Shown here piece after piece: positions 10,780 to 60,815 of a stretch of DNA of 64,000 bases. Below the pieces are notes generated by a model. It was not told the origin of the DNA and made no database searches. It was given only the letters and a program-made list of their open reading frames with translations. The translations under genes and the position numbers were made by a program. Source of the stretch: Gemmatimonadaceae bacterium (GTDB lineage Bacteria > Gemmatimonadota > Gemmatimonadetes > Gemmatimonadales > Gemmatimonadaceae); NCBI GenBank assembly GCA_036560025.1, contig DATBRZ010000259.1, positions 96-64,095 of the forward strand, given 5' to 3'. The first letter of the stretch is position 1. Each line of letters opens with the position of its first letter.

Positions 10780-10847
10780 TGCCACTCCCAGTAGAAAGTC
10801 GAAATCCCGGGAGACACCAGGCCCGGGAACTTACGTTGTGCGCCACT

Positions 10848-10876
10848 AATCTGTTCGAGTATGGGGGCAGCGTCAA
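10848..10876 (-). promoter_or_regulatory. putative sigma70 promoter of lexA
   Basis: TTGACG-17 nt-CAGATT on the minus strand. Confidence 0.45.
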
Positions 10877-10878
10877 CG

Positions 10879-12336
10879 CTATTGTTGCGTTTCTGTTACC
10901 CATACGGTCGCCTCTCGTACCCTTTTCAGGGCTAGATCCCGACCCATAAGGACAAGCACATCGAAGATACCGGGGCTGACTGCCAGGCCGGTTAAGGCGA
11001 CCCTGAGGGGTTGAAACACCTTTCCCCCGCTCAATCCCTTCGCTTCGGCGAGGTCGCGGAGCAGGGTTTCGAGGCTCGCGTGGTCCCAGTCCCGAGCAGT
11101 CTCCAGGGCTTTCGCAACGGACGCCAAGAGGTCCGCCGTTTCTGCGCGATTCTTCCAATGTTTTCCTACAACATCCGTATCGTAGGTAATAATAACCGGA
11201 AAATACGGCGCTGCCTGGCGGACGATATCGTCGATCGTTCTCGCGCGTACGCGAAGGAGATCGAGAAGCTGCAAGTACCAGTCGTGTCGAGCCGCGAGCT
11301 GTTCCGTCGTCGCGAGTCCGGCCGCGACGATCGCAGGGGTGACGCGCGGCTCGAGCTCGCTGAGTGAGACGAGTGACAGATGCTGGCCATTCATCCACTC
11401 GAGCTTCTTCGGATCGAAGATCGCGGCCTTCTTCTGAAGGCCATCGGTTGAAAACAGCTGGATCATCTCGTCAACCGTCATTATCTCACGATCACCGCCG
11501 GGTGACCAGCCAAGCAAGGCGAGGAAGTTGAGCATCGCGCCCGGCAGCATTCCCTGATGCTGATAATCGCCGACGGCGGTAGCGCCGTGGCGCTTGCTCA
11601 GCTTCTTCCCATCCATGCCGTGAATCATCGGTAGATGGGCGAACTGCGGCAGTTCAACGCCCAGCGCGCGATAGAGAAGGATCTGCTTCGGTGTGTTCGA
11701 GATGTGATCGTCACCGCGCATCACCAGCGTGATTCCCATAGCGACATCGTCGGACACTACGGCCAGGTTGTAGATCGGCGTCCCATCCGATCGCAGAATG
11801 ACGAAGTCGTCGAGATCCTTATTCGGAAACGCGATTCTCTCGTGCACCAGATCGTCCCACTCCGTTGTTCCATCGGGAATGCGGAAGCGGATGACGTACG
11901 GCTCGCCTGACGCAACGCGTCGCTCAATCTGTGCGACGTCGAGTCGGTCGCAGCGTCGATCGTACTTGAAGCTCTCCCTGCGCGACTCCGCTTCGCGCCG
12001 GCGCTCCTCGAGCTCGGCGGGAGTACAGAAGCAGCGATACGCGTATCCGCGCTCCAGAAGCAGTCGCGCGTCACGCTGATGCGCGGCGAGGTTCGCGCCC
12101 TGGTACACGACCTCCTCGTCCCAGTTGAGACCGAGCCATCCGAGTCCGTCGAAGATCGCGCGCGTGCTCTCTTCCGTGCTGCGCGCCTTGTCGGTGTCTT
12201 CGATGCGCAGGAGGAACTTTCCGTCGAAATGTCGCGCGTAGAGCCAGTTGATGAGCGCCGTGCGCGCGCCGCCGACATGGAGATAGCCGGTGGGCGATGG
12301 AGCGAAGCGGAGGCGCGGCTGTCTGTCGGACGGCAT
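10879..12336 (-). CDS. gltX: glutamate--tRNA ligase
   Basis: RFAPSPTGYLHVGGART, KLSKRH; the longer track ORF runs through the tRNA, so start set at ATG 12336. Confidence 0.97.
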   Translation of the reverse strand: MPSDRQPRLRFAPSPTGYLHVGGARTALINWLYARHFDGKFLLRIEDTDKARSTEESTRAIFDGLGWLGLNWDEEVVYQGANLAAHQRDARLLLERGYAYRCFCTPAELEERRREAESRRESFKYDRRCDRLDVAQIERRVASGEPYVIRFRIPDGTTEWDDLVHERIAFPNKDLDDFVILRSDGTPIYNLAVVSDDVAMGITLVMRGDDHISNTPKQILLYRALGVELPQFAHLPMIHGMDGKKLSKRHGATAVGDYQHQGMLPGAMLNFLALLGWSPGGDREIMTVDEMIQLFSTDGLQKKAAIFDPKKLEWMNGQHLSLVSLSELEPRVTPAIVAAGLATTEQLAARHDWYLQLLDLLRVRARTIDDIVRQAAPYFPVIITYDTDVVGKHWKNRAETADLLASVAKALETARDWDHASLETLLRDLAEAKGLSGGKVFQPLRVALTGLAVSPGIFDVLVLMGRDLALKRVREATVWVTETQQ

Positions 12337-43211: not shown

Positions 43212-45470
43212 TTGCCCAGTTTCGTCAGTTCGACTCGCTATCTCCGACTGGCTGCCCGAGCGCGCAGTTGGTGCGCGACGAGCGCGCTGCTGTACGTTCC
43301 GCTCACGCTCGTCTTGGGGGATTCCGCCGCCGCGCAGAGCCAGCAAGCGATCGGCCGACAGGTGGTGAGGATTACCGAGATTGATGACCAAATGCGGATC
43401 GACGGCCGCCTATCCGAGTCTGTATGGAGCACCGCCGATTCCATCAGCGATCTCACCCAAGTGGAGCCCCGGGAAGGTGCACGTCCCTCGGCACGCACGG
43501 TCGTGCGGATACTCACGACCGAGGACGCAGTGGTAATTGGCGTGCGGGCCGACGATCCCGAGCCGTCCCGTATCGTGAGCTTCGCGCGCCAGCGCGACGC
43601 GATTTTGGACAGCGAGGACCACATCAAGATCGTGCTCGACACGTACCTCGATGGCCGATCCGGATACGTCTTCGCGGTCAATCCGAATGGTGCGCGGTAC
43701 GATGCCCTGATCACGAATCAGGGGGCGGGTGAGAACGCGACCTGGGACGCCGTCTGGCAGGCTGCGACGGTGCGCACCGCGACCGGTTGGTCTGCGGAGA
43801 TCCTGATTCCGCTGAAGAGTCTTCTCTTTCGGCCAGGTCTTACAGAGTGGGGCTTCAACCTGCAGCGGCGGATCCAGCGGCTGCAGGAGACGGATCGCTG
43901 GGCGAGTGCAGAGCGCGACTACAAGGTCACGCAGCCCAGCCGTGCCGGCTTGCTCACGCATCTTCCGCACTTTGAACTCGGCATCGGTCTTAGCGTGCGC
44001 CCGTCCGTGACCGGCGGCCGCGTGCGTGACAGCGCGAGCGCGTCAATGCAGAGCACGAGCAAGACGAGCCTCGACGCGACGCAGCGGCTCGGCGCCAACA
44101 CGCTTGCTTCGCTGACCGTGAACACCGATTTCGCCGAGACCGAGGTCGACGCTCGGCAAGTGAATCTCACCCGCTTTCCGCTCTTCTTCCCCGAGAAGCG
44201 CACATTCTTTCTCGAGGGCGCCGACATCTTCGAATTCGGCCTCGGGCTCACCTCCGATCTCGATGCGCTTCCGTTCTTCAGCCGCAGCATTGGCCTGATT
44301 GCCGGCGAGCAAGTGCCGATTACTGCAGGTGCGAAGATAAATGGCCGAGTCGCTGGAACGAATTTCGGCGCGCTCGCGGTTCGTACGCGGGACACGGACA
44401 CCCTATCCAGCGCGAGCACGATGGCGGTCGTCCGCGTCAAGCAGAATGTCCTGAGTGAATCATCGGTGGGCTTCATTGCAACTGCAGGCGACCCGGTCGG
44501 CCGCTCGCGCAGCTGGCTCTTTGGCCCGGACCTAACCTACCAGACGTCGCACTTCCGGGGTAACAAGAACTTTCTCATTGGCGTGTGGGGCTTGGCCGTC
44601 GGGCGCGAGGATCTGACGCGCGGCGATCGCACAGCAGCCGGCATCAAGGTCGATTATCCCAACGATCTCTGGAACATCAGCCTCAAATACAACCGCATCG
44701 GCGACGCGTTCGATCCCTCGTTAGGCTTCGTCCCACGGCCTGGCGTCCACATCGCGAACGTCGGCGTGGATTGGCAGCCCCGGCCAACGCAGCCCATCGG
44801 GCGGTTACACATTCGCCAATGCTTTTGGGAGAATCAGCTCCGGTATGTCGCCGGACTTAGCGGCGGCTGGCAGAGCTACCGCTATTTCATGGCGCCGGTC
44901 AACTGCCGTTTGGAGAGCGGCGATCGATTCGAGTTCAACTTCGTTCCGACCGGGGAGCGACTCCTTACTCCGTTCGAGTTGACCGACAAAATCACCATCC
45001 CTGTCGGCGCGTATGAATTCATCCGGTTTCGGCTGGAGGGCGGACTTGCCGCAAAGCGTCGGTTCAGCGCACAAGCGACGTGGTGGTTCGGCCAATTCTA
45101 CGATGGACGGCTCGATCAGTACGAATTAACCGGCGCGTGGAAGCCGTCATCGCTCATAATCGTGGAATTCACTGGCGAGCACGATGTGGGTCGGCTCCGG
45201 GAGGGCAACTTCACGCACGATCTGTTTGGTACACGTCTCGGGCTCAATGTCTCGCCCGACCTGCAGCTCACAAGCTTCGTGCAGTATGACACCGAGTCTG
45301 AATCGTTCGGTACGAATACCCGGCTCCGTTGGACCTTCAATCCACTCGGGGATTTCTTTGTTGTTTATAACCACAACCTGCGGACACGCGATCCGTTAAC
45401 ACTTCGGCGTGAGCTTGTGTTCGCGTCGAATCAGCTCCTGGTCAAGGCGCAGTACGCGTTTCGGTACTGA
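43212..45470 (+). CDS. CBM9-like + DUF5916 outer-membrane protein
   Basis: IDG.L.E..W, VNTDFAETEVD, FPEKRTFFLEG, terminal YAFRY. Confidence 0.88.
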   Translation: MPSFVSSTRYLRLAARARSWCATSALLYVPLTLVLGDSAAAQSQQAIGRQVVRITEIDDQMRIDGRLSESVWSTADSISDLTQVEPREGARPSARTVVRILTTEDAVVIGVRADDPEPSRIVSFARQRDAILDSEDHIKIVLDTYLDGRSGYVFAVNPNGARYDALITNQGAGENATWDAVWQAATVRTATGWSAEILIPLKSLLFRPGLTEWGFNLQRRIQRLQETDRWASAERDYKVTQPSRAGLLTHLPHFELGIGLSVRPSVTGGRVRDSASASMQSTSKTSLDATQRLGANTLASLTVNTDFAETEVDARQVNLTRFPLFFPEKRTFFLEGADIFEFGLGLTSDLDALPFFSRSIGLIAGEQVPITAGAKINGRVAGTNFGALAVRTRDTDTLSSASTMAVVRVKQNVLSESSVGFIATAGDPVGRSRSWLFGPDLTYQTSHFRGNKNFLIGVWGLAVGREDLTRGDRTAAGIKVDYPNDLWNISLKYNRIGDAFDPSLGFVPRPGVHIANVGVDWQPRPTQPIGRLHIRQCFWENQLRYVAGLSGGWQSYRYFMAPVNCRLESGDRFEFNFVPTGERLLTPFELTDKITIPVGAYEFIRFRLEGGLAAKRRFSAQATWWFGQFYDGRLDQYELTGAWKPSSLIIVEFTGEHDVGRLREGNFTHDLFGTRLGLNVSPDLQLTSFVQYDTESESFGTNTRLRWTFNPLGDFFVVYNHNLRTRDPLTLRRELVFASNQLLVKAQYAFRY

Positions 45471-47358: not shown

Positions 47359-49056
47359 TTACGGCCTCCTGGCGGGCGGCGCGCGACGTTGCGACAGAGG
47401 ACAACCTCGGAACGAATTCGGGGCAGTCACATTTTTCCTGGGAGGCGCGCTTGTATCGATTTGCGCGAGTGAAGCGTTCGACCAGCTCAGCTCGTTGATG
47501 ACGCAGAAATCATCGCGTCGCGCCAGGAGGATCGGATGTAGGTAGTGTGGTCCCAGACCTGGAATCTGATCAACAACGACGTAGTTCGCTCCGACAGAAT
47601 CCGCCGCGCGGTAGAATTGTTCCGGGTCGCTGCTCAGCGGATAAAGTGCGCTGCGATATCCGGATCGCATGAAGAAAATCGACGGTTTCCTCGAAAGAAC
47701 GACCGAGCCGGCCGGGAGCTTGCCGCGCGTTTCGTCGGCAAGATGGAAAAAGGCAGCGTAGGTCGAATCCGTGCATGCCAAGGTCACATCTGCCGTCTCA
47801 GCTCGACATCCTGCGCTGTTGCGAAACTCGCGTGACAGATCGGGAATCAGCAGCACCACCAGTATGGCGCAAGCAGTAACTGGCACCAGCGCTTCCGCCT
47901 TGGGCACCGGACGCAGCATCCACGGGAGTGTCTGGCACGCGTACAACAGGAGAAGGGGCAGAAGCGGCAGGATGAATCGCTCGCTCGACCACGTCGAAGG
48001 CCAGAGCAGAATCAATCCGACGTAAAGCACAACCCAGATCTCTGGAAGGGCGGGCTTTCGAAGCCGGCGTATCCATCCACTGACCGCCAAGGCGGCCACG
48101 GGAATTCCGAGCCACATCCCAGGCCATCTCCGTCCGGTGAGACTCGTCGGAATGCCTGTTCCAAGGTAGTAGGTCAGGTTGCGTCCGATTCGCTCGGGAA
48201 GATCGGAAAGCCCAATCGTTCCCTGCGACGGGTCGTACGGATTCCGTGCCATGAATGGTGCGACGTAACCGCCATGACCAGCTGACTGTGTGCGTATCCA
48301 CCAAAGCAGGATCGGGGGCAGCACGACTGCGAGGAGCACGGCGAGTGCGGCCGGCCGACGGCGATACAGCACCCAGATCGCTGCGGCCGCAACGAGCGGC
48401 AGCCCCGCCGACCTCGTAAAGTTCGCCAGCACTATTGCTGCAGCGGCAACTGCAACATCCAGTTTTTCGTCTCGCGGCGAGACAAATGCGCCCGCATCGA
48501 CATTTTCCTGATATCGCTGCCACAACAGCAGGGCGAGCATCGTCATCGCCCAGAACGGAACGTCCGATAATACCGCGTGGCTGATCGTCGCAAGGCCGGG
48601 TGACAGTGCGAGTGCGAAACCCACCGCCGCCGAGATCACTGTGCCTGCGATTTTCCGCATCCAGGCGACAGAGAGTCCGATCGCACACGCCGAGAAAACG
48701 ATGATGATCATCTTCAGGCCAAACGCGGGAGTAAGTCCGACAGCGAGACCGCCGGCGAGTATCAGCGGGAAGACCGGCGGATACTGAACATGCGGCGGCG
48801 TGAGCGGATCCCAGATGTCTCTGTATGTCCCAGTTGTCAGGAGCGACCGCGCTAGCGCGAGGTACGTCGCATCATCTCCGCCAGTTGGCGGTGCTGGATT
48901 GTATGCCGCGAGGAGGACAAAGAAGTGGAGCACGGCGAGCGCGACCGGCAACGCCCACGACGGCCACGGGCGCGTCGCCGTTTGTTTTTCGGCCGTCGCT
49001 TGCGGTTTGGCGGCTGCCGCTCGCCGTCGGCGAGTGGCGCGTGAGCGCGCCGTCAT
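47359..49056 (-). CDS. GT-C (ArnT/PMT-like) membrane glycosyltransferase
   Basis: GDDATY after TM1, YPPVFP, SDVPF, ERFILP; multi-TM; start ATG 49056. Confidence 0.85.
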   Translation of the reverse strand: MTARSRATRRRRAAAAKPQATAEKQTATRPWPSWALPVALAVLHFFVLLAAYNPAPPTGGDDATYLALARSLLTTGTYRDIWDPLTPPHVQYPPVFPLILAGGLAVGLTPAFGLKMIIIVFSACAIGLSVAWMRKIAGTVISAAVGFALALSPGLATISHAVLSDVPFWAMTMLALLLWQRYQENVDAGAFVSPRDEKLDVAVAAAAIVLANFTRSAGLPLVAAAAIWVLYRRRPAALAVLLAVVLPPILLWWIRTQSAGHGGYVAPFMARNPYDPSQGTIGLSDLPERIGRNLTYYLGTGIPTSLTGRRWPGMWLGIPVAALAVSGWIRRLRKPALPEIWVVLYVGLILLWPSTWSSERFILPLLPLLLLYACQTLPWMLRPVPKAEALVPVTACAILVVLLIPDLSREFRNSAGCRAETADVTLACTDSTYAAFFHLADETRGKLPAGSVVLSRKPSIFFMRSGYRSALYPLSSDPEQFYRAADSVGANYVVVDQIPGLGPHYLHPILLARRDDFCVINELSWSNASLAQIDTSAPPRKNVTAPNSFRGCPLSQRRAPPARRP

Positions 49057-49760
49057 TGTGCGGATTCTGTAATTCCGGCGAAGAACGCGTCGAGCTTCGC
49101 CCCATCTAGGCGCCCGCCTGTGCGAACGCCGCTGCAAATATCCACTCCGAATGGACGAACAGTTGCGACAGCCTCAGCCACGTTCGAGGCATTGAGTCCG
49201 CCCGCAAGAAATACGGGAACCTGCACCGCGTCGCGAATGCGCCTGCTGATCTGCCAGTCATGGCGCCTTCCCGTTCCGCCAAGCTCTTTTACGGCGAGGG
49301 AGGGATTGCCCGAATCGAGCAAAATGCCATCGACGTGGGAGCTCACCGCATTTGCCTCGTCGATCGAATTTTCACCCGTTACGTGAATCACCTGAACGAT
49401 TGCGACAGCCGGCAAGAGCTCGCGGAGCCGTCGATGGCCATCGGGCTCGATTCTGTCGACCAGCTGGACCGTGTTGACGCCGGAACGACGCACCTGTCGA
49501 GCGATCGACTCGGCGCTCGTTTCGCACGTAAGCAGAAACGTTGCAATGCTGGGAGGCACGCTCCGCGCAATCTGATCGATCAGATCGTCGTCGATCACGC
49601 CGGGTCCGCTTGGCATTGCCGAGACGAGTCCGATTGCATCTGCGCCGCTAGCGATTGCTAGCTCGGCCTCAGCGACGCTTCCCATGCAGCAGATCTTTAC
49701 GCGCGTGCGACCGACGTCGTGGTCGTTGCGCTCACGATCTCCAAAAAGCGGATGAATCAT
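49053..49760 (-). CDS. trpF: phosphoribosylanthranilate isomerase-like protein
   Basis: RVKICC, GADAIG, LLDS, GGTG..HDW, LAGGL, GVDICSGV; start uncertain. Confidence 0.8.
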   Translation of the reverse strand: MIHPLFGDRERNDHDVGRTRVKICCMGSVAEAELAIASGADAIGLVSAMPSGPGVIDDDLIDQIARSVPPSIATFLLTCETSAESIARQVRRSGVNTVQLVDRIEPDGHRRLRELLPAVAIVQVIHVTGENSIDEANAVSSHVDGILLDSGNPSLAVKELGGTGRRHDWQISRRIRDAVQVPVFLAGGLNASNVAEAVATVRPFGVDICSGVRTGGRLDGAKLDAFFAGITESAQ

Positions 49761-49882
49761 GGCGAACAGTAACACGAAGCTCGCCGGCACCTCAATGAAA
49801 GCAACTTCGGAGCACTTCTCGCATCTGCTGACTAAGCTTCTGTGATCTCGGATCTCTGATTTTCGAAGTTTGCCATTCTCAG

Positions 49883-51709
49883 ATGAGCACCTACGTCCTC
49901 GGTCTATCCGCCTTCTATCACGACAGTGCCGCGTGCCTGCTGCGTGACGGTGAAATAGTCGCCGCCGCGCAGGAGGAAAGATTTACGCGAAAGAAGGGAG
50001 ACGAATCGTTTCCGTCGAACGCGGCGCGCTACTGCCTGACCGCTTCCGGAATCGAGATCAAGGATCTGACGGCCGTCGCATTCTACGACAAACCGTTGCT
50101 CAAATTCGAGCGAATCATAGAGACCTACCTCAGCGTGGCCCCCAGCGGGTTTCAGTCGTTCAGGAAAGCCGGCCCGCTGTGGATGAAAGAGAAGCTCTAC
50201 ACCGACAACGCGATTCGTGAAGGACTCGGCGGATTCAAAGGTCGCGTGTTGTACGCCGAGCACCACGAGTCACACGCAGCGAGTGCTTTCCTCGCTTCAC
50301 CGTTCGAGCGGTCAGCGATACTCACGATCGACGGGGTTGGGGAATGGGCGACGGCGTCTATCGGCGTCGGTCAGGGCGCAGACTTCGAGCTTCTGCGCGA
50401 GCTCGATTGGCCTGACTCTCTCGGACTGCTCTACTCCGCGTTCACCTATCACATCGGATTCAAGGTGAACTCCGGCGAGTACAAGGTGATGGGTCTCGCA
50501 CCGTATGGATCGCCGCGCTACGTCGACGCGATCTTGAGCGAGCTTGTCGATCTCCGTGACGACGGCTCGTTCCGCCTCAATCAGGAATACTTCGATTACC
50601 TCTCGGGACTGACGATGACGAACAACGCGTTCAGTCGGCTGTTCGACGGACCCCCGAGACTGCCTGAGTCGCTGCTGACGCAGCGTGAGATGGATATGGC
50701 GCACAGTATCCAGCACGTCTGCGAACAAATCGTTTTGCGGATGGCGCGGTCAGCGCATTCACTGACCGGAGAGCGGAACCTCTGCCTCGCGGGAGGCGTT
50801 GCTCTCAATGCGGTCGCGAACGGACGAGTTCTACGCGAATCACGATTCGATGGTCTCTGGATTCAGCCGGCTGCAGGCGATGCGGGCGGAGCGGTTGGTG
50901 CGGCTCTGATAGTGTGGCACCGCTACTTGAACGGCGGGCGTGACGTCCAGGCTCTACAGACGGACGCGATGAAGGGAAGCTTCCTCGGCCCCGAATACAG
51001 CGATGCCGAAATAGAGAGAGCACTTACGGACGAGAAGGCAACATTCGAGCAGCTCGGCCGAGATGAGATGATCGAGAGTGTGGCATCGCTTATCGCCGCC
51101 GGAGCGGTCGTTGGCTGGTTCCAGGGCAGGATGGAATTCGGACCGCGCGCGTTGGGAGCTCGCAGCATTCTCGCCGATCCACGGAACCCGAAGATGCAGG
51201 CGCTGATCAATCTCAAGATCAAGTTTCGCGAGGGCTTCAGGCCGTTTGCGCCGAGTGTTCTGCTCGAGCGCGCGAAGGAGTACTTCGATCTGGACGGTGA
51301 GTCACCGTACATGCTCATCGTCGTGCCGGTTTGCGAAGAGCGACGGCTGCCGCCGCCCGAGAATATCAGTGAGCTGTGGGGAATAGATCAGCTGAACGTG
51401 CCGAGGTCAGACATACCTGCCGTTACGCATCTCGATTATTCAGCGCGAATTCAGACCGTCACCCGCGACCGCAGCCCGCTCTATTACGGCCTCATCAAGT
51501 CGTTCGAGCGACAAACGGGATGTGCGGTACTCGTCAACACCTCATTCAATGTGAGAGGCGAGCCGATAGTGTGCACACCGCGCGACGCGTATCGGTGCTT
51601 CATGCGAACGGAGCTCGATTATCTGGCGATCGGTTCATTTCTGCTGGCGAAATCGACTCAACCACAACGAGCGGAGGGCGCCTGGAAGCAGCCAGTTCAG
51701 CTGGATTGA
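49883..51709 (+). CDS. O-carbamoyltransferase (NodU/CmcH/TobZ/SxtI family)
   Basis: HDSAA, EERF.R.K, HHESHA, DGVGE, GEYKVMGLA, EFGPRALG.RS, RPFAP, NTSFN. Confidence 0.96.
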   Translation: MSTYVLGLSAFYHDSAACLLRDGEIVAAAQEERFTRKKGDESFPSNAARYCLTASGIEIKDLTAVAFYDKPLLKFERIIETYLSVAPSGFQSFRKAGPLWMKEKLYTDNAIREGLGGFKGRVLYAEHHESHAASAFLASPFERSAILTIDGVGEWATASIGVGQGADFELLRELDWPDSLGLLYSAFTYHIGFKVNSGEYKVMGLAPYGSPRYVDAILSELVDLRDDGSFRLNQEYFDYLSGLTMTNNAFSRLFDGPPRLPESLLTQREMDMAHSIQHVCEQIVLRMARSAHSLTGERNLCLAGGVALNAVANGRVLRESRFDGLWIQPAAGDAGGAVGAALIVWHRYLNGGRDVQALQTDAMKGSFLGPEYSDAEIERALTDEKATFEQLGRDEMIESVASLIAAGAVVGWFQGRMEFGPRALGARSILADPRNPKMQALINLKIKFREGFRPFAPSVLLERAKEYFDLDGESPYMLIVVPVCEERRLPPPENISELWGIDQLNVPRSDIPAVTHLDYSARIQTVTRDRSPLYYGLIKSFERQTGCAVLVNTSFNVRGEPIVCTPRDAYRCFMRTELDYLAIGSFLLAKSTQPQRAEGAWKQPVQLD

Positions 51710-52095
51710 CGAGCGCTGAGGGACGGAGGTTCGCGTGGACTCTGGCGGCGGCGTTCGCCGTACTTGGCGCGCTCCTCTGGTGGAGACATCGCGCCACGCC
51801 GGCAATTGTCGCGGCGAGCCTGTCTCTTCTAATGTTGCTGGCCGGAGCTTTTGTCCCGTCGCGGCTCGGACCGGTCCAGCGCGCCTGGATGGGACTCGCG
51901 CACGCGATCTCCAGGGTTACAACGCCGATATTTCTGGCAATCGTGTACTTTCTGGTTCTCACTCCAGCGGGATTCATGAGACGGACAGTTGGAGGGAATC
52001 CGCTCGTGCGCGACGCGAAAGCGGGAAGCTTCTGGGTCGAGCGCGACCGGCTGTCTCAGGACCGGAAACGGCAGCGACTCGAGCGTCAGTTCTAA
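51706..52095 (+). CDS. SxtJ-family membrane protein
   Basis: RRF, TMs, P..L.P..RAWM, YFLVLTP.G, SFW..R, terminal ERQF; start approximate. Confidence 0.85.
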   Translation: MTSAEGRRFAWTLAAAFAVLGALLWWRHRATPAIVAASLSLLMLLAGAFVPSRLGPVQRAWMGLAHAISRVTTPIFLAIVYFLVLTPAGFMRRTVGGNPLVRDAKAGSFWVERDRLSQDRKRQRLERQF

Positions 52096-52107
52096 AGGAA
52101 GAGCGCG

Positions 52108-52266
52108 ATGGGATTCGGCGGACTGTTGCGAGAGCTATGGGCATTCATGCGTGAGCGGAAGAAGTTGTGGCTCCTTCCGATCGTCGTCGTTCTAGTGCTG
52201 GTCGGCGGCCTGCTCGTGCTCGCGCAGGGGTCGGCACTGGCTCCGTTCATCTACACGATCTTCTAG
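52108..52266 (+). CDS. SxtK/DUF5989 single-TM micropeptide (52 aa; not in the ORF track)
   Basis: MGFGGLLRELWAFMRERKKLWLLPIVVVLVLVGGLLVLAQGSALAPFIYTIF*; AAGGAA upstream; stop overlaps the next GTG. Confidence 0.92.
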   Translation: MGFGGLLRELWAFMRERKKLWLLPIVVVLVLVGGLLVLAQGSALAPFIYTIF

Positions 52267-54233
52267 TGGCGCGCCGCAAGGCGTCGAAGAACAGGAACGC
52301 GACGCGTGAGCGCGAAGAGCGCCCCAGTGCTGCAGCGGAGCCTGCACCGAACTCGCAAAAACTCAGCACCGGAAAGAAGGCTGCGTTCACTGCGATTGCG
52401 CTTCTTTTCCCGTTCATCGTCCTTGGATTGCTCGAGGCTGGACTGCGAATCGCAGGGTATGGCGCTCAGCCTCCGCTGTTCGATTCGCCCGAATTCGTCC
52501 GCGGAACACTGCTCGTTCCGAATCAGGATGTCGGCGCTCGCTATTTCCCACGCGAAAAATTCCCGCCATCACCACCGGGCGATTTTTTCCTAGCGAACAA
52601 GCCGCCGAATGCGTTGCGGCTGTTCCTGATGGGAGAATCCGCCGCTGCAGGATTCCCATATCCACGCAACGGAACATTCTCGCGCGTGCTTCAGGATGCG
52701 CTGCAGGATGTACTGCCGAACGACACAGTCGAAGTGATCAACCTCGGCATCGCAGCGACGAACAGCTACACCATTGCTGATCTCGCGCGCGAAGTAGTCG
52801 AGCAGCATCCCGATGCCGTTCTCATCTACGCCGGCCACAACGAGTACTACGGCGCGCTTGGTGTGGGGTCGACCGAAACACTCGGTCAGTTTCCCGGCTT
52901 CGTGCGGCTCTACCTGCGGCTTCAGCGATTTAGAACTGTGCACCTGGTGCGGGCAGGTCTTGGAAGAATCCTTTCCGCATTTCGCGGCGGGTCACCAGTC
53001 CCAGGGACCGAGGATGATCCGAGCAGAATGGCCAGCGTCGTCGCCAATCAGAACATCGCGCTTGGAAGTGCGGCCTTCGACGCCGGGAAGAGACAGTACG
53101 AGAGCAATCTGCGGTATGCGATCGGAGTCTTTCGTCGCGCCGGCGTGCCCGTATTCGTTGCGAGCACGCCAAGCAATCTTCGAGACTTGCGGCCGTTTGA
53201 CGCCGTTCAGAACGGAAACGCCAGACCGTCGGCGGTCGTTTTCGACTCGGCAAACTCGGCGCTCGCCAAGTCGGATTCGGCGAGCGCTCGAAGACTGTAC
53301 GAGAGAGCGCGCGATCTCGATGCAATTCGCTTTCGCGCGCCCGGCGAGTTCCGCACGATCGTTCAGCGAGTCGCATCTGAGTCAGGATCGACGTACGTAC
53401 CCGCGGATGAGCTGGTAAGCCGCGCGTCGAAATTCGGAATTCCGGGCAGCGATCTCTTCCTCGAGCACGTTCACCCGAATCACACCGGATACGCGCTGCT
53501 TGCGCGGATCTTTTATGAGGCGATCGCGCGCAGGAATTTCCTCGGTCACCGCGCGGATACGCTGCGGCTTGCGGCGTGGCCCGAGTACGAGCGCCGAATG
53601 AGTCTGACCGACCTAGATGAGCGGATTGCGTTTCACACTGTGCGGACAATCATGCTTCGCTGGCCGTTCGTCCCGATTCGGGCACAAGCCGATTATCGCG
53701 GGACGTACCATCCTGTCGGCTTCATCGACTCGCTTGCGCTTTCGGTCTCTCGGGGCGGGATGCCCTGGGTCGCAGCAAAAACAGCGGCCGGCGAAAGGTT
53801 CGAAAAAGATCATGAGCCTCAGCGCGCCCTCGCGGAGTATCGCGGGCTTCTCCACAATCAGCCGCGATCAGAGCAACCCTGGAGATTGATTGGTCGTGCA
53901 TTCCTCGAAGCCGGACAGCTCGATTCAGCGGAGACTTACCTCACACGCGCGCAGAACATTCGACCTTCGGGGTTTTCCGCGTATGCGCTCGGCCTGATCG
54001 CCTCCAGGCGGAAGGACCTTCCGCGCGCGATGGTGATGCTCGAGGAATCTTTGCGGCTTCAGCCTGACAATCCTCCCACGCTATACGAGCTATCGCTCGC
54101 GTATGCACTGTCGCACAATCTCGATGCAGCACGAGGCGCAGCGCTCCGGCTCGCACAGGTCGCGCCCAGTTATCCGGGGCTCAGTCAATGGCTGACTACG
54201 CTAGGCATCGCTCCGCCGTCGCCTCAACGGTAG
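52266..54233 (+). CDS. membrane-anchored SGNH/GDSL protein with TPR repeats
   Basis: TM...LEAGLR, GES (block I), INLG, GHNE (block III), EHVHP (block V), C-terminal TPRs. Confidence 0.87.
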   Translation: MARRKASKNRNATREREERPSAAAEPAPNSQKLSTGKKAAFTAIALLFPFIVLGLLEAGLRIAGYGAQPPLFDSPEFVRGTLLVPNQDVGARYFPREKFPPSPPGDFFLANKPPNALRLFLMGESAAAGFPYPRNGTFSRVLQDALQDVLPNDTVEVINLGIAATNSYTIADLAREVVEQHPDAVLIYAGHNEYYGALGVGSTETLGQFPGFVRLYLRLQRFRTVHLVRAGLGRILSAFRGGSPVPGTEDDPSRMASVVANQNIALGSAAFDAGKRQYESNLRYAIGVFRRAGVPVFVASTPSNLRDLRPFDAVQNGNARPSAVVFDSANSALAKSDSASARRLYERARDLDAIRFRAPGEFRTIVQRVASESGSTYVPADELVSRASKFGIPGSDLFLEHVHPNHTGYALLARIFYEAIARRNFLGHRADTLRLAAWPEYERRMSLTDLDERIAFHTVRTIMLRWPFVPIRAQADYRGTYHPVGFIDSLALSVSRGGMPWVAAKTAAGERFEKDHEPQRALAEYRGLLHNQPRSEQPWRLIGRAFLEAGQLDSAETYLTRAQNIRPSGFSAYALGLIASRRKDLPRAMVMLEESLRLQPDNPPTLYELSLAYALSHNLDAARGAALRLAQVAPSYPGLSQWLTTLGIAPPSPQR

Positions 54234-54289
54234 TACGTTTTGAATGGCAGTCACCGCACATGGAATGTCGTGAACGGAAAGGAGAAACG

Positions 54290-54847
54290 ATGACGAGGTC
54301 GATTCTGCGTGTAGCTGTCGTAGTCGCGTTTCTGTTTGTCGTATCGAGCTGTGCGCATGCTCCGTCGCCGCTGAATCGCGTAGGAGTCGCTTACGTGACG
54401 TTTGCCGATGCAGCCGGAGCGCCGCGCGGCACGGCCGAGCTGTGGCAGGATACCGATAACGTCGTCCACGTCCAGCTGCAGCTACTCGGTCTGCCTGCCG
54501 GGACGCACGGCATTCACTTTCACGCGGTGGGAAGGTGCGAGGGAAGCGGCACGACGCCGTTCAGCACGGCCGGCTCGCACTTCAATCCGCTCGGACGCCA
54601 GCACGGACTGGAAAATCCTGCTGGTCCGCACGGCGGAGATCTGCCGAACATCGTGGCTTCGAATGACGGCAGCGTGAGCGTCGGACTAGCGACCGATCGC
54701 GTGTCGCTCACCGCAGGATCCACCACCTTGTTCGATGCCGACGGCACGGCGATGGTAATCCACGCCGCCGCGGACGATCAGGTATCTCAGCCGGCGGGGA
54801 ACAGTGGGGCGCGAATCGCGTGTGGAGTTGTCAGGCGCACCCTTTAG
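54290..54847 (+). CDS. sodC: Cu/Zn superoxide dismutase lipoprotein
   Basis: HGIHFH, HFNP, HG, HGGD, IH..DD, GARIACG; lipobox SSC; start ATG 54290. Confidence 0.93.
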   Translation: MTRSILRVAVVVAFLFVVSSCAHAPSPLNRVGVAYVTFADAAGAPRGTAELWQDTDNVVHVQLQLLGLPAGTHGIHFHAVGRCEGSGTTPFSTAGSHFNPLGRQHGLENPAGPHGGDLPNIVASNDGSVSVGLATDRVSLTAGSTTLFDADGTAMVIHAAADDQVSQPAGNSGARIACGVVRRTL

Positions 54848-54888: not shown

Positions 54889-57594
54889 TTACTGATCGGA
54901 GCTAGTTCTCCCTAGGGCGGCGAAGGCCTGCCCACGGTAATAATCCGATCCGATCGAATTCGCGGCGCGCTCGTACGCTGTTCTGAGCCCGGAGTCGAGC
55001 CGGTAGCTCCGCGCAACACGAGTGAGAAGACCGGCAAGCTCGTGATCTGATCGGATCGTCGGCGCCGCGGCGAGCAGCGCTGCAACAGTCTCACGTGTGA
55101 GCGGACGCTCGGCGAGAGCCTGTGACATTGCTGCGGCCTTGTAGTAGTCCGAGCCGATGCTGCGGACCGCGTTGAAGTACCAGTCACGGCTCGATCCCTT
55201 GAGTCGCCCGTGCTGAATGAGCGCCTGGAGCGACTCGGATTTGTAGTAATCCGACTTGATTCCGGAGATCGCGTTGATGATCGACGATGAAATCCCTTCG
55301 TCCCATTCGGTTCCGGTATCGAGCGTCTTGATCACCTCGTACCTGTAGTAGTCCGATCCGATCTTGTCGAGCGCGTCCATGTAGTACTGCCGCGTCTGCG
55401 GATTGATCGCGTACTTCCGCGCGACACCCTTGAGAATCTCCGCCTGGTAGTAATCCGATTTGATCGTACCTGCGGTGCGCAGCAGGAACGACAGAGTCGT
55501 CGAGCTCAGGCGATCGTTCACGAGCACTTTTCCGATCGCCTCCGACTTGTAGTAATCGGATGTCATCCGGCCGGTCGCTTCGGCAAACGCACGCCAGACG
55601 CTTTCGTCTGCGTATCGTTGAGAGGAAAGCTTGCCCAGTGTCTCCGACAGGTAGTAATCGGAAGAGATCTCGCTCGCTGCCTGATTGATCAGACGAACGA
55701 GGGTCGGCGCGTCGAAATTCATCCCCATGCTCAAGAGGACGCTGTAGTATCGGTGACGCGCGTAATCACCTTCGAGCCGCGAGATCTCGTCAGTTACGGA
55801 ACGAATGCCGTTCTGCTCGAACAGCATTGGCACTCGCGTGTCGGCAGCGAACGCGGTTCGACGCTCGAGTGCTAGCAATGCATCCGCTAACCAGCGCCGC
55901 GCCCCAGCGTCAAACTCACTGCGCCTGCCATTGACATAGTAGACATGATCCAGGCCACCGCGTGCCGGCCGAATCTCGATTCGCCGGGTGGTGCCGCCGT
56001 CGCGCTCCTCCATCCAGAACGATCCATCGGATTCGAGCGAGGCGACGTCAGTGAGATCGGGGCGCAGCGTGAACTTGCCATCTATCTGCATCTCCATCCG
56101 GCATCCGCCGCGCTCGAATTTGACGGAGAATGAACGCCGGCCGCGACGTGAATCGTCGTCGTTGCTGCTGATGCTGGTCGAGCCCTTCTCGCCCTCTTTG
56201 CTTCGCGTTTGCCAGCAGACTTGCGCTGACGACACAGTCATCGTGAGATCGGGCGTTGCGAGCGTCACCAATCCAGCCGGTGCCTGCATCGCCTTGATGA
56301 AGGGAACGGCAGCGGTGATGAACGTGCTGCTGAGAGAGGGCACGCCGTTGGTCGCAGCAGTAGCTGCGGGCGCATCCGTTTTTGCAGGAACTGCCGGGGA
56401 GACCGATCTCGGCATCGCCGCGGACACAGTTCCCTTAGTGACGGAACCGGGCACAGGGGTTCCGACTTCTCGAGGAGCCGGGGATGCAACCGACCACGGC
56501 GCGAGTGCGGCCAAGGGAGCGATGAGCAGCGTTACTGCCGTACCGGCAAGAGAGCGGAAGCGGCGCGAGACTCCGTTGCGCGGCCGCGATGGATCAAGCA
56601 CTGCGATCACGCGACCGGACAGCTGTGACGGACGAGCCATTGCAATCGCTGCATGCGCCGTCGCCGGGATTGCCCGTAACGACCGAGCGACGTCGAGAAG
56701 CTGGTCAGCGTAGTCTGACGGACGAGATCCTGCGCTGATGACTCGATCATCGCAGGCGAGCTCACGTTCGACACGCATCCGCCGCGCCGCGACCCAGACC
56801 AGTGGATTGAACCAATAGACAGCGCACGCAACCTGGGCGATCAGCTGTGTCAGGCAATCAAACCGATCCGTGTGCGCAAGCTCGTGCATTACGACGTTTC
56901 GAATCTTCCATCTTGGCCAGTCGCTGACGCGAGCGGGGAGAAGCAGCACTGGTGAAGCGAGTCCCCATGTCATTGGCATCGCTGCAGCATGACTCTCGAG
57001 GACGCGCACCTTGCGCGTGATTCCGTAAAGCGCGGTCACTACCGCAACGACTTCGGCAACCGGACCCGACTCGATCGAGACTGCTCGGCGAGCGACGAGC
57101 GAAAGCCGGATGCGAGCGACGAGAATTGGAACGAATACGGCGATGAAACCGGCAAACCAGAGAAGGGCGAGACGCATCGACAAGGGAACCGGCTGCGGAT
57201 CGAGAACCCTTCCGGACTCAGGACTAACGGCCATCGACGATCGACGACTAATTGCGGATTGCAGACTGACTGCGGACTGCTGATCAAGCGCGGGAACACG
57301 ACGCGCAAGGTTGTCCGCAGGACCAGTTACCGGCGGCAGAACCGTGGCAGAACGAACGATCGGCTCATCGACGATCACACCACTCGGTGGAGAAAGAAGC
57401 GATACTCGGAGCGGAGGGAGCGCACGCATCAACAGGGGCAACGCAAGTGTTCCGACAACTGCGAAAGTCCAGACGAGGTGTCGCGAGGCCGCTGGGGATC
57501 GCCGCATTGCAAGCGTCGCAACTCCCGCGGCGGCGAGAACCACGATGCTCTTGAGAGCGAGATCAATGAGGAAAACAACCGAGGTGCTCATCAC
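54889..57594 (-). CDS. BlaR1-like M56 metallopeptidase with C-terminal helical repeats
   Basis: RHLVW, HELAH, YWFNPLVW, ERELACD; nine SDYY-type repeats. Confidence 0.92.
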   Translation of the reverse strand: MMSTSVVFLIDLALKSIVVLAAAGVATLAMRRSPAASRHLVWTFAVVGTLALPLLMRALPPLRVSLLSPPSGVIVDEPIVRSATVLPPVTGPADNLARRVPALDQQSAVSLQSAISRRSSMAVSPESGRVLDPQPVPLSMRLALLWFAGFIAVFVPILVARIRLSLVARRAVSIESGPVAEVVAVVTALYGITRKVRVLESHAAAMPMTWGLASPVLLLPARVSDWPRWKIRNVVMHELAHTDRFDCLTQLIAQVACAVYWFNPLVWVAARRMRVERELACDDRVISAGSRPSDYADQLLDVARSLRAIPATAHAAIAMARPSQLSGRVIAVLDPSRPRNGVSRRFRSLAGTAVTLLIAPLAALAPWSVASPAPREVGTPVPGSVTKGTVSAAMPRSVSPAVPAKTDAPAATAATNGVPSLSSTFITAAVPFIKAMQAPAGLVTLATPDLTMTVSSAQVCWQTRSKEGEKGSTSISSNDDDSRRGRRSFSVKFERGGCRMEMQIDGKFTLRPDLTDVASLESDGSFWMEERDGGTTRRIEIRPARGGLDHVYYVNGRRSEFDAGARRWLADALLALERRTAFAADTRVPMLFEQNGIRSVTDEISRLEGDYARHRYYSVLLSMGMNFDAPTLVRLINQAASEISSDYYLSETLGKLSSQRYADESVWRAFAEATGRMTSDYYKSEAIGKVLVNDRLSSTTLSFLLRTAGTIKSDYYQAEILKGVARKYAINPQTRQYYMDALDKIGSDYYRYEVIKTLDTGTEWDEGISSSIINAISGIKSDYYKSESLQALIQHGRLKGSSRDWYFNAVRSIGSDYYKAAAMSQALAERPLTRETVAALLAAAPTIRSDHELAGLLTRVARSYRLDSGLRTAYERAANSIGSDYYRGQAFAALGRTSSDQ

Positions 57595-57974
57595 TTGCCC
57601 TCCTTCTTCGCCTGCTCGACGAGCTCGCTCAATCGATCGAGCTCCTCGCCTGAAAGATCCCGCGCGGAAAGGTCGAGCAATGCGGCAACAGCCTGCGTCG
57701 CTGACCCGTCGAAGAATGTCTTCACCATCTGTCTGAGCGCGGATTTTTGCGCTGCCGGCCGCGATACAGTAGGAGTGAAAACGTAGCGCGGTCCATCGTA
57801 CTTGTGAGTGAGATGCCCTTTCTCCTCGAGAATGCGAAGCAGTGACCTCACCGCCGAATAACTCGGTGCATCCGGGAGATTGTCACGCACTTCGGCGGCA
57901 GTAGCCGAGCCGGCGCGGTAGACAATGTCCATGATCTGGCGTTCGCGGCGCGAAAGGTTGGCGAGTGGCGGCAT
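57591..57974 (-). CDS. BlaI/MecI/CopY-family repressor
   Basis: LSRRERQIM, YSAVRSLL.ILEEKG, FFDGS. Confidence 0.94.
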   Translation of the reverse strand: MPPLANLSRRERQIMDIVYRAGSATAAEVRDNLPDAPSYSAVRSLLRILEEKGHLTHKYDGPRYVFTPTVSRPAAQKSALRQMVKTFFDGSATQAVAALLDLSARDLSGEELDRLSELVEQAKKEGK

Positions 57975-58091: not shown

Positions 58092-60815
58092 TTACATCGC
58101 GGGAATCCAGAAATTGGCTTTCACCGCAAAGAAGTTGGTTCCTCGCTCCTTGTATCCGCTGAACAGGTCCGTCACTCGAACGAGATCGCCATTCGGCTCG
58201 AAGCCTGACCTGTTCTGCTGCCAGACGAAGAACATCGTACTTCCCGGCCGGTATTCCCATCGCACCACGAAGTTGCTTCTCACCGATCGAACGTTGAAGT
58301 CGGGGAAGGGAATTGTGAACGTGCTCGGGGCACCGCCAGCTCCTGGCACCGCAGGATCGGTTATCAGGTATCGCCCATCGGTCTGGCGAACGATCGTTGT
58401 GCCGTCGTCGCCGTATGTCCGCAAGTCTCGACTTCGCGGTGCGAGCAGCTCGCCAAAATCGTAATAGTGTCCGCTTGCCGCGAACGGCTCAGCCCAGAAC
58501 TCGAGTGTCAGATCCGGCTTGATCGTGTAATTCAGGCGAATGTCGGTGAAGAAAGTCGCCTGGTCGATGAACGAAAAGACGTAACGACGACCATACGTCT
58601 CTGTCCGACCATTCTGAAGCGTGGCGACATACTGCCGTGAGTTGACTGCCCTTAGATAATTCGGCTCGAGCGACAGCTGCCACTGAGGAACCGGCCGAAT
58701 CGAGAACAACCCGCTGATCCGATTGACCGGAGATCCATACTCATCCTTCCCGTAGTAAACGCGGCCGGACCAACGCGTTTTCGAAGCAAAGCTGTTGCTC
58801 AGCTGAATGATGCCGTAGAGGAAAGAACCCGTACCCATTGAAGGTCCGCCACGCGTGAGTCGCTCATCCTGAGCCCGCGCGTTGTAGCTGGAGAAGAAGC
58901 TCAAAGTCCAGAAGTTCTTGAACGTTGCATCGGCCTGAGCGTAGGGGGCCCTGTACTGCACATCGTTGTCGAAGTTGAGCTCGGTGTCCAATCCGCCGCC
59001 GACCGAGTAATTACGGAACCGCTTCCCCGGCTGTGTATCGCGGTAGCGCAGGTTGAATCCGCCGAATCGGCCGTCGCTCGTCCCTAGCCGCCCGACATCG
59101 TTCGTCTCGAAGGCGGGTGATTCGAATCCACTGTAGATGTAGCCGAGCCACTTACCGGTGTTCTTGTCGAGCTCGACAGTTCCCGCGCCGCCGGTAAGCG
59201 AAGTGCGCGACGGATCGACGTGATACGCCTTCGCATCGAGACGCTGGAAATACCGCGCGCTCGAACGTTGCGCGAGAAGAATTGCAGCCGAGTCGCCTGA
59301 TATATGGCTGAAACCGAGGTAGTGTCTCACGCTCCACGCGCCACCCTGAAACCGCCAGAGAAGATCGTAGCCGCCTGAATACGCACGACGATTGAGGATC
59401 TGTGCCAGCGGCTCTCCGGTCTCGAGATCGCGCTGCATTCCGGTCAGACTCAGTCCGACAGTCGAAGCATCCTTCCCGAACTGCTTCTGCACGCGGCTCA
59501 CGCCATACATCGTGAGCGGAGCAACGACGGTTTTGCTGAATTGCTTCGAGACAGTGTCGTAGGTCTCGGCTTTCTCTCTCGCCGTAACCGCGGTCAGAGC
59601 GCCAAGCGAAGTTCCATTCGGGAATCTTCCCGTGATTTTCGCCGCGCCAAGAATCGTCGACGCCTGCGGATAATCGACGAATGACCCGCTCGCTGGTCCG
59701 CGGGGGCGCGCTCCGATTCGGCGGGAGTAGAAGTAGTTCGCCCCGTTACCGCGAAGCAGCTGAATCCCCTCGAGAAAGAACGGCCGCTTCTCGGTGAAAA
59801 ACGTCTCGAAGGCAGAGAGATTCACCTCGGCTGGATCAGCTTCCACTTGTCCGAAATCGGGATTCACAGTGCCTTCGAGAGTAAGACTGGGGCCAAGCCC
59901 CATTTTGAGATCGCCTCCAAAGCGACCCCTGACATTCCTGCCGTTATCGAATGGATTTTGTCCGTCGCGGTTCGCATTTACCGTCGCGTCGCTCGCGACG
60001 TAGGGAAGCAACTCGAGCCGTCGCGAGGGCTTGATCCCGCTGATTCCTTCCAGTGCGCCCATTCGGGATGACCAGCCCGTGCCCTGGCGAGGAATTGGAA
60101 TCCAGAAAACGTCCTCGTTCTTGGATGGCACCCAGTGGTCGATGTTGAGTCCCCAGTGCTGCACCTCCGCTGCATTGAAGCGGAGTTGACTGAATGGAAT
60201 ACGCATCTCGGCCGTCCACCCGGTCGAATCGATGCGCGACGCAGCTTCCCATACCGGATCGAACCCGGTGTCGATGTTCGTCTCGTTATCGGTGGGGTGA
60301 TACCAGTCGCCGCGAACTCCTGAGGCGCTGACGCCGAAGCTGTAGGCGGTGCGCCGGTCGCGATACGAATCGAGCGATATCCAGATGTGCTCGGCCTGAC
60401 TGATGTTGTCGCGCCTGGCAATGGGTGCCTGAATCGTCCTCGGCGTGCGAGTGATGACGCGCGTCGCGACGAAGAGAGCGTCGTCATCGTACAGGAATCG
60501 GACCTCCATGCTGTCGCTGGGTCTGCCGCCTTCGACCGGTTCCTTCTGAACGAAATCGGTGATTGGTCGTGCTGTCGCCCAGAGGGGTTCGTCGAGTTTT
60601 CCGTCGACGTTGATGCTTCCTCCGCGAATGCGTGTCGCTGTCGCGACTTTGTTCGCGCTTGTCGCTTGAGTGATAGGAGCCGTCGTCTGTGCTGTCAGTT
60701 GCCCGAAGGCGACGAGCGAGGTGATTCCAATTACCAGGAGAGATTTCATGACCTGAGCGGCGTGGTTGATGGCGTGTCCTTTGACGGCAGATGCGTTCGA
60801 ACCGTTCCTTGACAC
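58092..60815 (-). CDS. CBM9-like + DUF5916 outer-membrane protein
   Basis: VDGKLDE..W, EMRIPFSQLRF, VNPDFGQVEAD, EKRPFFLEG, RWEYRPGS; likely start ATG 60749. Confidence 0.9.
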   Translation of the reverse strand: MSRNGSNASAVKGHAINHAAQVMKSLLVIGITSLVAFGQLTAQTTAPITQATSANKVATATRIRGGSINVDGKLDEPLWATARPITDFVQKEPVEGGRPSDSMEVRFLYDDDALFVATRVITRTPRTIQAPIARRDNISQAEHIWISLDSYRDRRTAYSFGVSASGVRGDWYHPTDNETNIDTGFDPVWEAASRIDSTGWTAEMRIPFSQLRFNAAEVQHWGLNIDHWVPSKNEDVFWIPIPRQGTGWSSRMGALEGISGIKPSRRLELLPYVASDATVNANRDGQNPFDNGRNVRGRFGGDLKMGLGPSLTLEGTVNPDFGQVEADPAEVNLSAFETFFTEKRPFFLEGIQLLRGNGANYFYSRRIGARPRGPASGSFVDYPQASTILGAAKITGRFPNGTSLGALTAVTAREKAETYDTVSKQFSKTVVAPLTMYGVSRVQKQFGKDASTVGLSLTGMQRDLETGEPLAQILNRRAYSGGYDLLWRFQGGAWSVRHYLGFSHISGDSAAILLAQRSSARYFQRLDAKAYHVDPSRTSLTGGAGTVELDKNTGKWLGYIYSGFESPAFETNDVGRLGTSDGRFGGFNLRYRDTQPGKRFRNYSVGGGLDTELNFDNDVQYRAPYAQADATFKNFWTLSFFSSYNARAQDERLTRGGPSMGTGSFLYGIIQLSNSFASKTRWSGRVYYGKDEYGSPVNRISGLFSIRPVPQWQLSLEPNYLRAVNSRQYVATLQNGRTETYGRRYVFSFIDQATFFTDIRLNYTIKPDLTLEFWAEPFAASGHYYDFGELLAPRSRDLRTYGDDGTTIVRQTDGRYLITDPAVPGAGGAPSTFTIPFPDFNVRSVRSNFVVRWEYRPGSTMFFVWQQNRSGFEPNGDLVRVTDLFSGYKERGTNFFAVKANFWIPAM

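Follow-up and report, generated by a model that had tools for sequence, protein, structure and literature searches.

How could a carbamoyl group that is activated in the cytoplasm be handed to a molecule on the outer side of the membrane? This question is raised by four adjacent genes in a 64,000-nucleotide (nt) stretch of contig DATBRZ010000259.1 (hereafter the window, meaning the whole stretch analysed) from a Gemmatimonadaceae bacterium; close relatives are labelled Gemmatimonadaceae. The genes encode an O-carbamoyltransferase, an SxtJ-like small membrane protein, a DUF5989 peptide with a conspicuous C-terminal tail, and a membrane-anchored SGNH protein. Our analysis suggests, with a probability of about 0.55, that they form a trans-membrane carbamoyl relay, in which the enzyme would load Tyr49 of the peptide and Ser125 of the SGNH protein would take the group and pass it to an outside acceptor, probably a glycan. 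The module itself is real and widespread, and is a new variation on a known shuttle logic. Its features, given in window coordinates, are as follows.

49883..51709, + strand: O-carbamoyltransferase (CmcH/NodU/TobZ type, SxtI-like), 608 amino acids (aa); PF02543 311 bits, PF16861 245 bits
50093..50194, + strand: residues 71-104 of the carbamoyltransferase, a two-helix hairpin specific to its clade and predicted to dock on the membrane; from the model and the clade alignment
51706..52095, + strand: SxtJ-like small membrane protein, 129 aa, likely a scaffold; PF19588 23.8 bits
52108..52266, + strand: DUF5989 (SxtK-like) peptide, 52 aa, with an amphipathic helix, RERKK, one transmembrane (TM) helix and the tail; PF19451 92.7 bits
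52246..52263, + strand: C-terminal hexapeptide FIYTIF of the DUF5989 peptide, from the sequence; fits the FXYXXF of PMC12148441
52252-52254, + strand: Tyr49 codon of the DUF5989 peptide, candidate carbamoyl carrier
52266..54233, + strand: SGNH protein anchored in the membrane, 655 aa, with TPRs at its C-terminus; PF13472 37.2 bits, a single N-terminal TM helix
52638-52640, + strand: Ser125 codon of the SGNH/TPR protein
53472-53474, + strand: His403 codon of the SGNH/TPR protein

The tight coupling of the four genes, claimed in a preliminary description of this DNA, was confirmed at these positions. The second gene overlaps the first at its TGA stop by 4 nt, the fourth shares 1 nt with the TAG of the peptide gene, and 12 nt separate the SxtJ-like stop codon from the DUF5989 gene; the likely TTG and GTG starts of the second and fourth genes are our own reading of the sequence. 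A promoter and terminator scan stayed at chance level, and a family scan found no AT3 gene in the operon.

We focused on the tail of the peptide, which ends in APFIYTIF directly before the stop codon. The FXYXXF motif is an acyl-shuttle motif, and a covalent acyl-Tyr has been described for it in DltX and PatA (PMC12148441). Among 43,223 stop-terminated frames of at least 45 aa in all six frames of the genome, three end in FxYxxF: the DUF5989 peptide, a true MBOAT on contig C198 (AFIYFQF), and a 79-aa frame of unassigned identity on contig C68. To avoid circularity, conservation of the tail was assessed in relatives sought with residues 1-44 only. This search gave 150 matches, of which 149 were aligned and 96 ended exactly eight residues after the query; the other 53 aligned relatives, which diverged abruptly, ran past the tail or ended early, looked like frameshifts, read-throughs or chimeras and were set aside. 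The invariance of the tyrosine proposed earlier was borne out, since Tyr49 was kept in 95 of the 96 in-register relatives and was Cys in one and Phe in none. Phe13 is Tyr in 8 of the 96, so that aromatic exchange does occur elsewhere in the peptide. Lys and Arg averaged 3.56 ahead of the TM helix and 0.09 behind it in 116 sequences picked by the tail pattern, a charge bias that predicts an outside tail. The peptide gave no DltX Pfam match at E 0.01, and its likeness to DltX is therefore limited to the hexapeptide; it had no PDB relative by sequence, and no relatives were found in viral contigs or PLSDB plasmids.

The SGNH/TPR protein, the putative partner of the tail, presents the catalytic positions G-E-S125, G161, N192, and E400-x-x-H403, with S125 present in all 131 aligned relatives and H403 in 128 (three gaps). 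A basic stretch resembling KKLSTGKK precedes its single N-terminal TM segment, giving a signal-anchor.

To place these features in a wider context, we examined the distribution and neighborhoods of the module. DUF5989 occurs in 88 of 301 genomes of the phylum, a tally that takes in the unpublished genome G157, and about 13,000 GTDB stretches from many phyla are estimated to carry the module, on the basis of the tail pattern and by extrapolation from one sixty-fourth of the GTDB collection. We analyzed 80 GTDB loci with wide flanks from many phyla. After one duplicate was dropped, a carbamoyltransferase was found at 68, SxtJ at 68 and an SGNH gene at 45 of the remaining 79; in the 51 loci with at least 5 kb on both sides, the corresponding counts were 47, 46, and 33. 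SGNH genes were called with a local profile that was robust in leave-one-locus-out tests, and 54 of 59 linked SGNH proteins had one or three N-terminal TM segments.

The linkage to SGNH genes presumed in the preliminary description proved strong and specific, and it extends to gene fusions. As a same-phylum control, we sampled loci of carbamoyltransferases from the 301 genomes, comprising 40 linked to the peptide, taken from roughly every other row, together with 35 unlinked ones and contig C13; one unpublished genome and two rows with the peptide on another contig were left out of the unlinked set. With a profile trained on linked proteins, an SGNH gene was found near 27 of the 40 linked enzymes versus 4 of the 36 others, and the background of this profile in the genome was 4 matches in 3.35 Mb. 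The four SGNH-positive unlinked loci comprised two with SxtJ fused to a YTLY tail, one with a small open reading frame (ORF) ending in PLIYAMF, and one with an enzyme ending in DLYTF. Pfam detected no further GDSL protein among 59 TM-anchored ORFs of unlinked loci, and another 122 TM-anchored ORFs, from loci negative for SGNH, yielded no GDSL or AlgX match. MBOAT and AT3 genes had both been expected to be absent. The former expectation held, as none was detected among 106 scanned of the 107 ORFs with at least five predicted TM segments at 119 loci, with a control MBOAT detected; AT3 genes, however, were present at 3 of the 119 loci (L067, L075, and L103).

Several loci departed from the common arrangement. 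L038, L040, L083, and L089 contain a DUF5989 gene with no carbamoyltransferase or SxtJ gene within reach; in L040 and L083 it lies among glycosyltransferase (GT9 and GT2) genes, and the peptide of L089 is devoid of the usual N-terminal helix. In L047:8551-11657, two copies of DUF5989 and two SGNH genes alternate, and a carbamoyltransferase broken into pieces comes next. In the cyanobacterial loci L098:3984-5510 and L105:14917-16566, three consecutive SGNH genes follow the peptide, and a DUF1574-type SGNH gene lies upstream.

Natural fusions provided topological information. At L045:2806-4371 (- strand) in Planctomycetota, a gene directly after a carbamoyltransferase encodes a 521-aa chain (P0273) composed of a TM segment, an SGNH domain, three TM segments, and DUF5989; no SxtJ was seen in this locus. 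A search with its C-terminal part gave 593 matches from a family of at least 120 clusters. In a ranking that included the tail, the best 120 of the 593 all had DUF5989 and a FIYTLF end, and 118 had an SGNH family; the SGNH domain of the fusion family showed weak matches to AlgX and AlgJ (E 4e-4 to 3e-3). The AlphaFold2 model of the fusion reached a predicted local distance difference test score (pLDDT) of 92 and a predicted template modelling score of 0.88. Together with conserved basic loops, it placed four predicted TM helices between the SGNH domain and the tail, so that both are predicted to lie on the same side of the membrane. The outward orientation of the tail proposed in the preliminary description is accordingly predicted in two ways, by charge bias and by fusion topology. 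The best Foldseek match of the P0273 model was crocagin CgnD (PDB 8a2n; E 5e-8, 14% identity). The three extra TM segments were considered as a fused SxtJ, but no similarity to SxtJ was detectable (HHalign probability 8%).

SxtJ may be fused to a tail as well. L157:9788-10384 and L161:5888-6454 and 10406-10960 (all + strand) encode SxtJ homologs (HHalign 96%) with an extension ending in GIYTLY or NYTLY, each just ahead of an SGNH gene. Assignment of these C-terminal parts to DUF5989 was rejected because the profile match was weak (3%), and a metagenome scan for the L161 fusion yielded one near-identical locus. No fusion of SxtJ to the peptide was accepted among 26 long representatives, the extensions of which look like miscalled starts or chimeras.

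Two further variants were also observed. L158:133-3407 (+ strand) encodes a TM-less SGNH protein, a carbamoyltransferase of the clade described below, and a TM-less 115-aa ORF ending in SPLIYAMF, which matched the peptide at the tail only (E 0.011, one-sequence search). This ORF was found in 1 of 301 and 0 of 5 genomes and in no plasmids, and its Atlas matches were below 0.9. The SGNH protein had no PDB match, so that no link to CgnD was established; this possible all-soluble variant is a lead only. In L174:7824-11372 (- strand), a carbamoyltransferase just outside the clade ends in DLYTF, possibly a fused tail, and an SGNH gene without a clear TM segment follows directly.

Next, we focused on the carbamoyltransferase. 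Its two Pfam domains correspond to the two-domain fold, it has no predicted TM segment, and it retains the TobZ-type metal and catalytic residues H13-D14, H127, H131, D150, D333, and K447. The labels of its PDB relatives are decarbamoylnovobiocin carbamoyltransferase, GdmN, and TobZ (E 1e-94 to 1e-75), and as a CmcH/NodU/TobZ-type enzyme it would carry out ATP-dependent carbamoyl transfer. In a tree of 140 enzymes, 99 of the 100 located no more than 2.6 kb from a peptide gene shared one clade (support 0.95), which also took in three loci with fused or variant tails and one contig-split gene. The single peptide-near enzyme outside the clade is the second enzyme of its own locus; 31 unlinked and 5 distant enzymes were also outside. 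A two-helix hairpin at residues 71-104, seen as helices 71-84 and 88-104 in the enzyme model (pLDDT 90 for the model), is common to the peptide-linked clade and missing in the outside enzymes. Its residues F75, R77, P87, G89, and W100 are invariant in 53 sequences, and it also carries the conserved polar residues K74, R77, E80, and T81.

Co-folding of the enzyme, SxtJ, and the peptide gave an ipSAE interface score of 0.88 in three runs versus 0.00 for the best of three controls, and the score fell to 0.00 when SxtJ was replaced. Of 157 solved pairs, 116 attain the mark for this score, as do 2 of 215 mismatched ones; these counts apply only roughly to three chains folded with our own alignments. 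The runs agreed on at least 95% of contacts, the partners had a pLDDT of 89, and the hairpin touched SxtJ residues 73-129 and one face of the peptide TM helix (residues 22-40). These models predict that the hairpin docks the enzyme on SxtJ and the peptide at the inner membrane face.

SxtJ itself falls just under the PF19588 cut-off of 24.4 bits and aligns with 97 relatives, one of which reaches 44.2 bits; it has no PDB relative by sequence. The preliminary description had assigned it the place of the MBOAT. This part of the proposal was not supported, because neither an invariant column nor a conserved His was found among the 98 aligned sequences, and SxtJ is likely a scaffold rather than a catalyst.

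The relay can be outlined from these data. In TobZ-type enzymes, carbamoyl phosphate and ATP give carbamoyl-AMP, and family knowledge suggests that this would occur inside a carbamoyltransferase held on the inner membrane face through its hairpin by SxtJ and the peptide. Because SxtJ offers no candidate catalytic residue, the enzyme itself would carbamoylate Tyr49, which the mobile tail might bring to the active site via a cleft that the hairpin creates together with SxtJ and the peptide TM helix; a deep cleft at the hairpin is speculation. By analogy with DltX-DltD and PatA-PatB, the aryl carbamate on Tyr49 would then be transferred to Ser125 and on to an acceptor hydroxyl outside. Aryl carbamates carbamoylate serine hydrolases, and such intermediates hydrolyze slowly, which suits transfer. 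The relay predicts a mass increase of +43 Da on Tyr49.

A number of points weigh against this reading. Its weak point is geometry, in that the outside tyrosine and the inside active site are one bilayer apart and the route between them is speculative. The confident interface comprises the enzyme, SxtJ, and peptide residues 1-40, leaving residues 41-52 outside. P46 (94/96), F47 (93/96), and F52 (94/96) are conserved about as well as Tyr49, so that the invariance of the tyrosine alone does not point to a catalytic role. Docking of the tyrosine at the SGNH serine, envisaged at the outset, found no backing in the fusion model, where the tail had a pLDDT of only about 50, and the fused tails of L161 are preceded by a short, Arg-containing helix (several Arg residues), a poor fit to an outside tail. 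Block II of the SGNH/TPR relatives contains the hydrolase-type residue Gly in 121/131 and Ala in 10/131, and PatB and OatA replace this Gly (PMC12148441). An SGNH gene is missing within about 10 kb at 18 of the 51 loci with wide flanks and at 13 of the 40 from the same phylum. Related loci are not independent of one another, which makes the control figures of 27/40 and 4/36 counts and not a test, and the loci overall are not phylogenetically independent. Lastly, the glycan acceptor suggested for the window received no support, as no glycan or polysaccharide cluster was present among 54 window ORFs scanned; only 25 of 51 loci have glycan genes nearby, and such genes are common around unlinked enzymes as well.

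Some of these points suit a simpler arrangement, in which SxtJ and the peptide only anchor the enzyme at the inner face. There it would directly carbamoylate an acceptor that is soluble or linked to a lipid, with the tail in a structural role and the SGNH protein acting outside as an esterase or decarbamoylase. Direct transfer to acceptors is how TobZ-type enzymes act, the confident interface does without the tail, about one-third of loci have no SGNH neighbor, and block II of the SGNH protein holds Gly. SxtL was moreover proposed as a decarbamoylase, a role put forward there without a test (PMC2679770). We nevertheless consider this arrangement unlikely, since it leaves unexplained why the C-terminal FIYxxF is shared in this genome only with an MBOAT, why SGNH domains are fused to the peptide, and why SGNH genes follow Tyr-tailed loci.

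A second alternative retains outside carbamoylation and dispenses with the tyrosine intermediate, with the tail only recruiting the SGNH protein and carbamoyl-AMP or a small donor channeled through the enzyme, SxtJ, and the peptide to Ser125. That Tyr is never Phe in 96 relatives, and that this Tyr serves as covalent carrier in both of the MBOAT systems studied (PMC12148441), make such a channel distinctly improbable, even though the hairpin is predicted to run along the peptide TM face (22-40) and SxtJ 73-93 with its polar K74, R77, E80, and T81, and every tail position is conserved. Finally, it is scarcely credible that the peptide shuttles acyl groups in the manner of DltX for an MBOAT from another part of the genome, with the carbamoyltransferase as a bystander: the genome holds two MBOAT genes (contigs C194 and C198) and an AT3 gene (C123), but a carbamoyltransferase is near 47 of 51 loci and an MBOAT near 0 of 119, the C198 MBOAT has its own tail (the C194 MBOAT runs off its contig), and a dedicated enzyme clade tracks the peptide.

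The surroundings of the operon are mixed. Divergent from it are an isolated trpF-like gene (49053-49790, - strand) and a multi-TM gene (47359-49137, - strand) with a weak PMT-family match (E 0.003), which had no relative at the other loci. A Cu/Zn superoxide dismutase gene (54188-54847, + strand) lies directly downstream, and genes for a BlaI-type repressor and an M56 peptidase (54889-57974, - strand) lie beyond it. DUF5916 genes occur twice in the window, at 43212-45470 and at 58092-60815 (the second on the - strand). Elsewhere in the genome, another two carbamoyltransferase genes, one of them partial, are located in L031 (G000:C13:1-7184) alongside genes of GT4, AsnB-like, and methyltransferase-like type; this locus showed neither SxtJ nor the peptide nor an SGNH gene.

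If the relay is correct, it provides a route that uses neither MBOAT nor AT3, carries a new cargo (carbamoyl), and is loaded by an enzyme of soluble type; it would imply widespread, unrecognized carbamoylation of cell-surface molecules and would make SxtL-type proteins transferases rather than decarbamoylases. It gives a testable function to SxtJ and DUF5989, families common in environmental bacteria, and offers an explanation for sxtJ, sxtK, and sxtL. Two routes by which extracytoplasmic polymers are acylated, MBOAT-SGNH and AT3-SGNH, are presented in a paper whose main text does not contain the word 'carbamoyl' (PMC12148441). We see an even chance that the module represents a third class beside them, in which a TobZ-type enzyme with an acquired, membrane-inserting hairpin would form a cleft with SxtJ and the microprotein, itself carbamoylate the microprotein tyrosine, and feed exchangeable periplasmic SGNH transferases; this class would be present in the estimated 13,000 stretches. 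Literature searches, with most subscription journals outside their reach, found nothing on DUF5989 or a carbamoyl shuttle and nothing joining carbamoyltransferase, cell envelope, polysaccharide, and carbamoylation.

Comparison with known systems places the module among several relatives. The window genes follow the order of saxitoxin sxtI-sxtJ-sxtK-sxtL (carbamoyltransferase, SxtJ, small gene, GDSL gene) with similar sizes, the SxtJ score being just below the Pfam cut-off. In the cluster papers, sxtK measures 165 bp and sxtL, a GDSL lipase gene, about 1280 bp (PMC2679770, PMC2684587, PMC3037375, PMC12300590). From gene order and size, with no sxt sequence compared, we infer that DUF5989 is SxtK. 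The literature found on sxtJ and sxtK, consisting of toxin-cluster and dinoflagellate papers, proposes in the passages available only that SxtI acts together with SxtJ and SxtK, and those of the four cluster papers give no mechanism for the latter two. SxtL was given a hydrolase role (PMC2679770); in L. wollei, sxtI is truncated and sxtL is missing according to the same group of papers, a pattern compatible with SxtL as hydrolase or transferase. No other sxt-type genes were present among the 54 window ORFs scanned, which comprise housekeeping and unrelated families, the whole genome not having been searched.

TobZ-, NodU-, GdmN-, and NovN-type enzymes and WapO are taken to act directly on cytoplasmic acceptors. 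The window enzyme shares their two-domain fold and catalytic residues, whereas the peptide-linked clade has its distinct hairpin and small membrane partners. WapO is a putative carbamoyltransferase for Pseudomonas lipopolysaccharide heptose, a known carbamoylated envelope glycan (PMC8005017). The crocagin cluster likewise combines a carbamoyltransferase (CgnI) and an SGNH protein (CgnD); unlike in our module, CgnD was reported as a slow protease, and cgnJ and cgnK are not annotated there as SxtJ or DUF5989 (PMC10070186). The same paper lists cgnK, whose function is unclear, as a neighbor of cgnI, and its supplementary table gives no CgnD-like entry for those of the listed related clusters that lack a carbamoyltransferase. 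PatA-PatB and AlgI-AlgJ/AlgX O-acetyltransferases have the same tail (FIYANF in NgPatA; PMC12148441); theirs forms the end of an MBOAT that has a catalytic His, whereas that of the module occurs free or as an extension of SxtJ or of the SGNH protein, and the non-Gly block II of PatB/OatA type, a transferase mark, is absent from the window SGNH protein.

The closest parallel is teichoic acid D-alanylation. DltX is about 50 aa long. In DltB-DltX-DltD, as in the window, a single-TM microprotein ending in FXYXXF with an invariant Tyr stands beside a membrane-anchored SGNH protein (PMC12148441), whereas the window module has neither an MBOAT nor a carrier protein and its donor enzyme is a TobZ-type carbamoyltransferase. 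Without MBOAT, AT3, or DltX homology, the module is a member of neither DltX-DltD nor PatA-PatB, but it would work like them.

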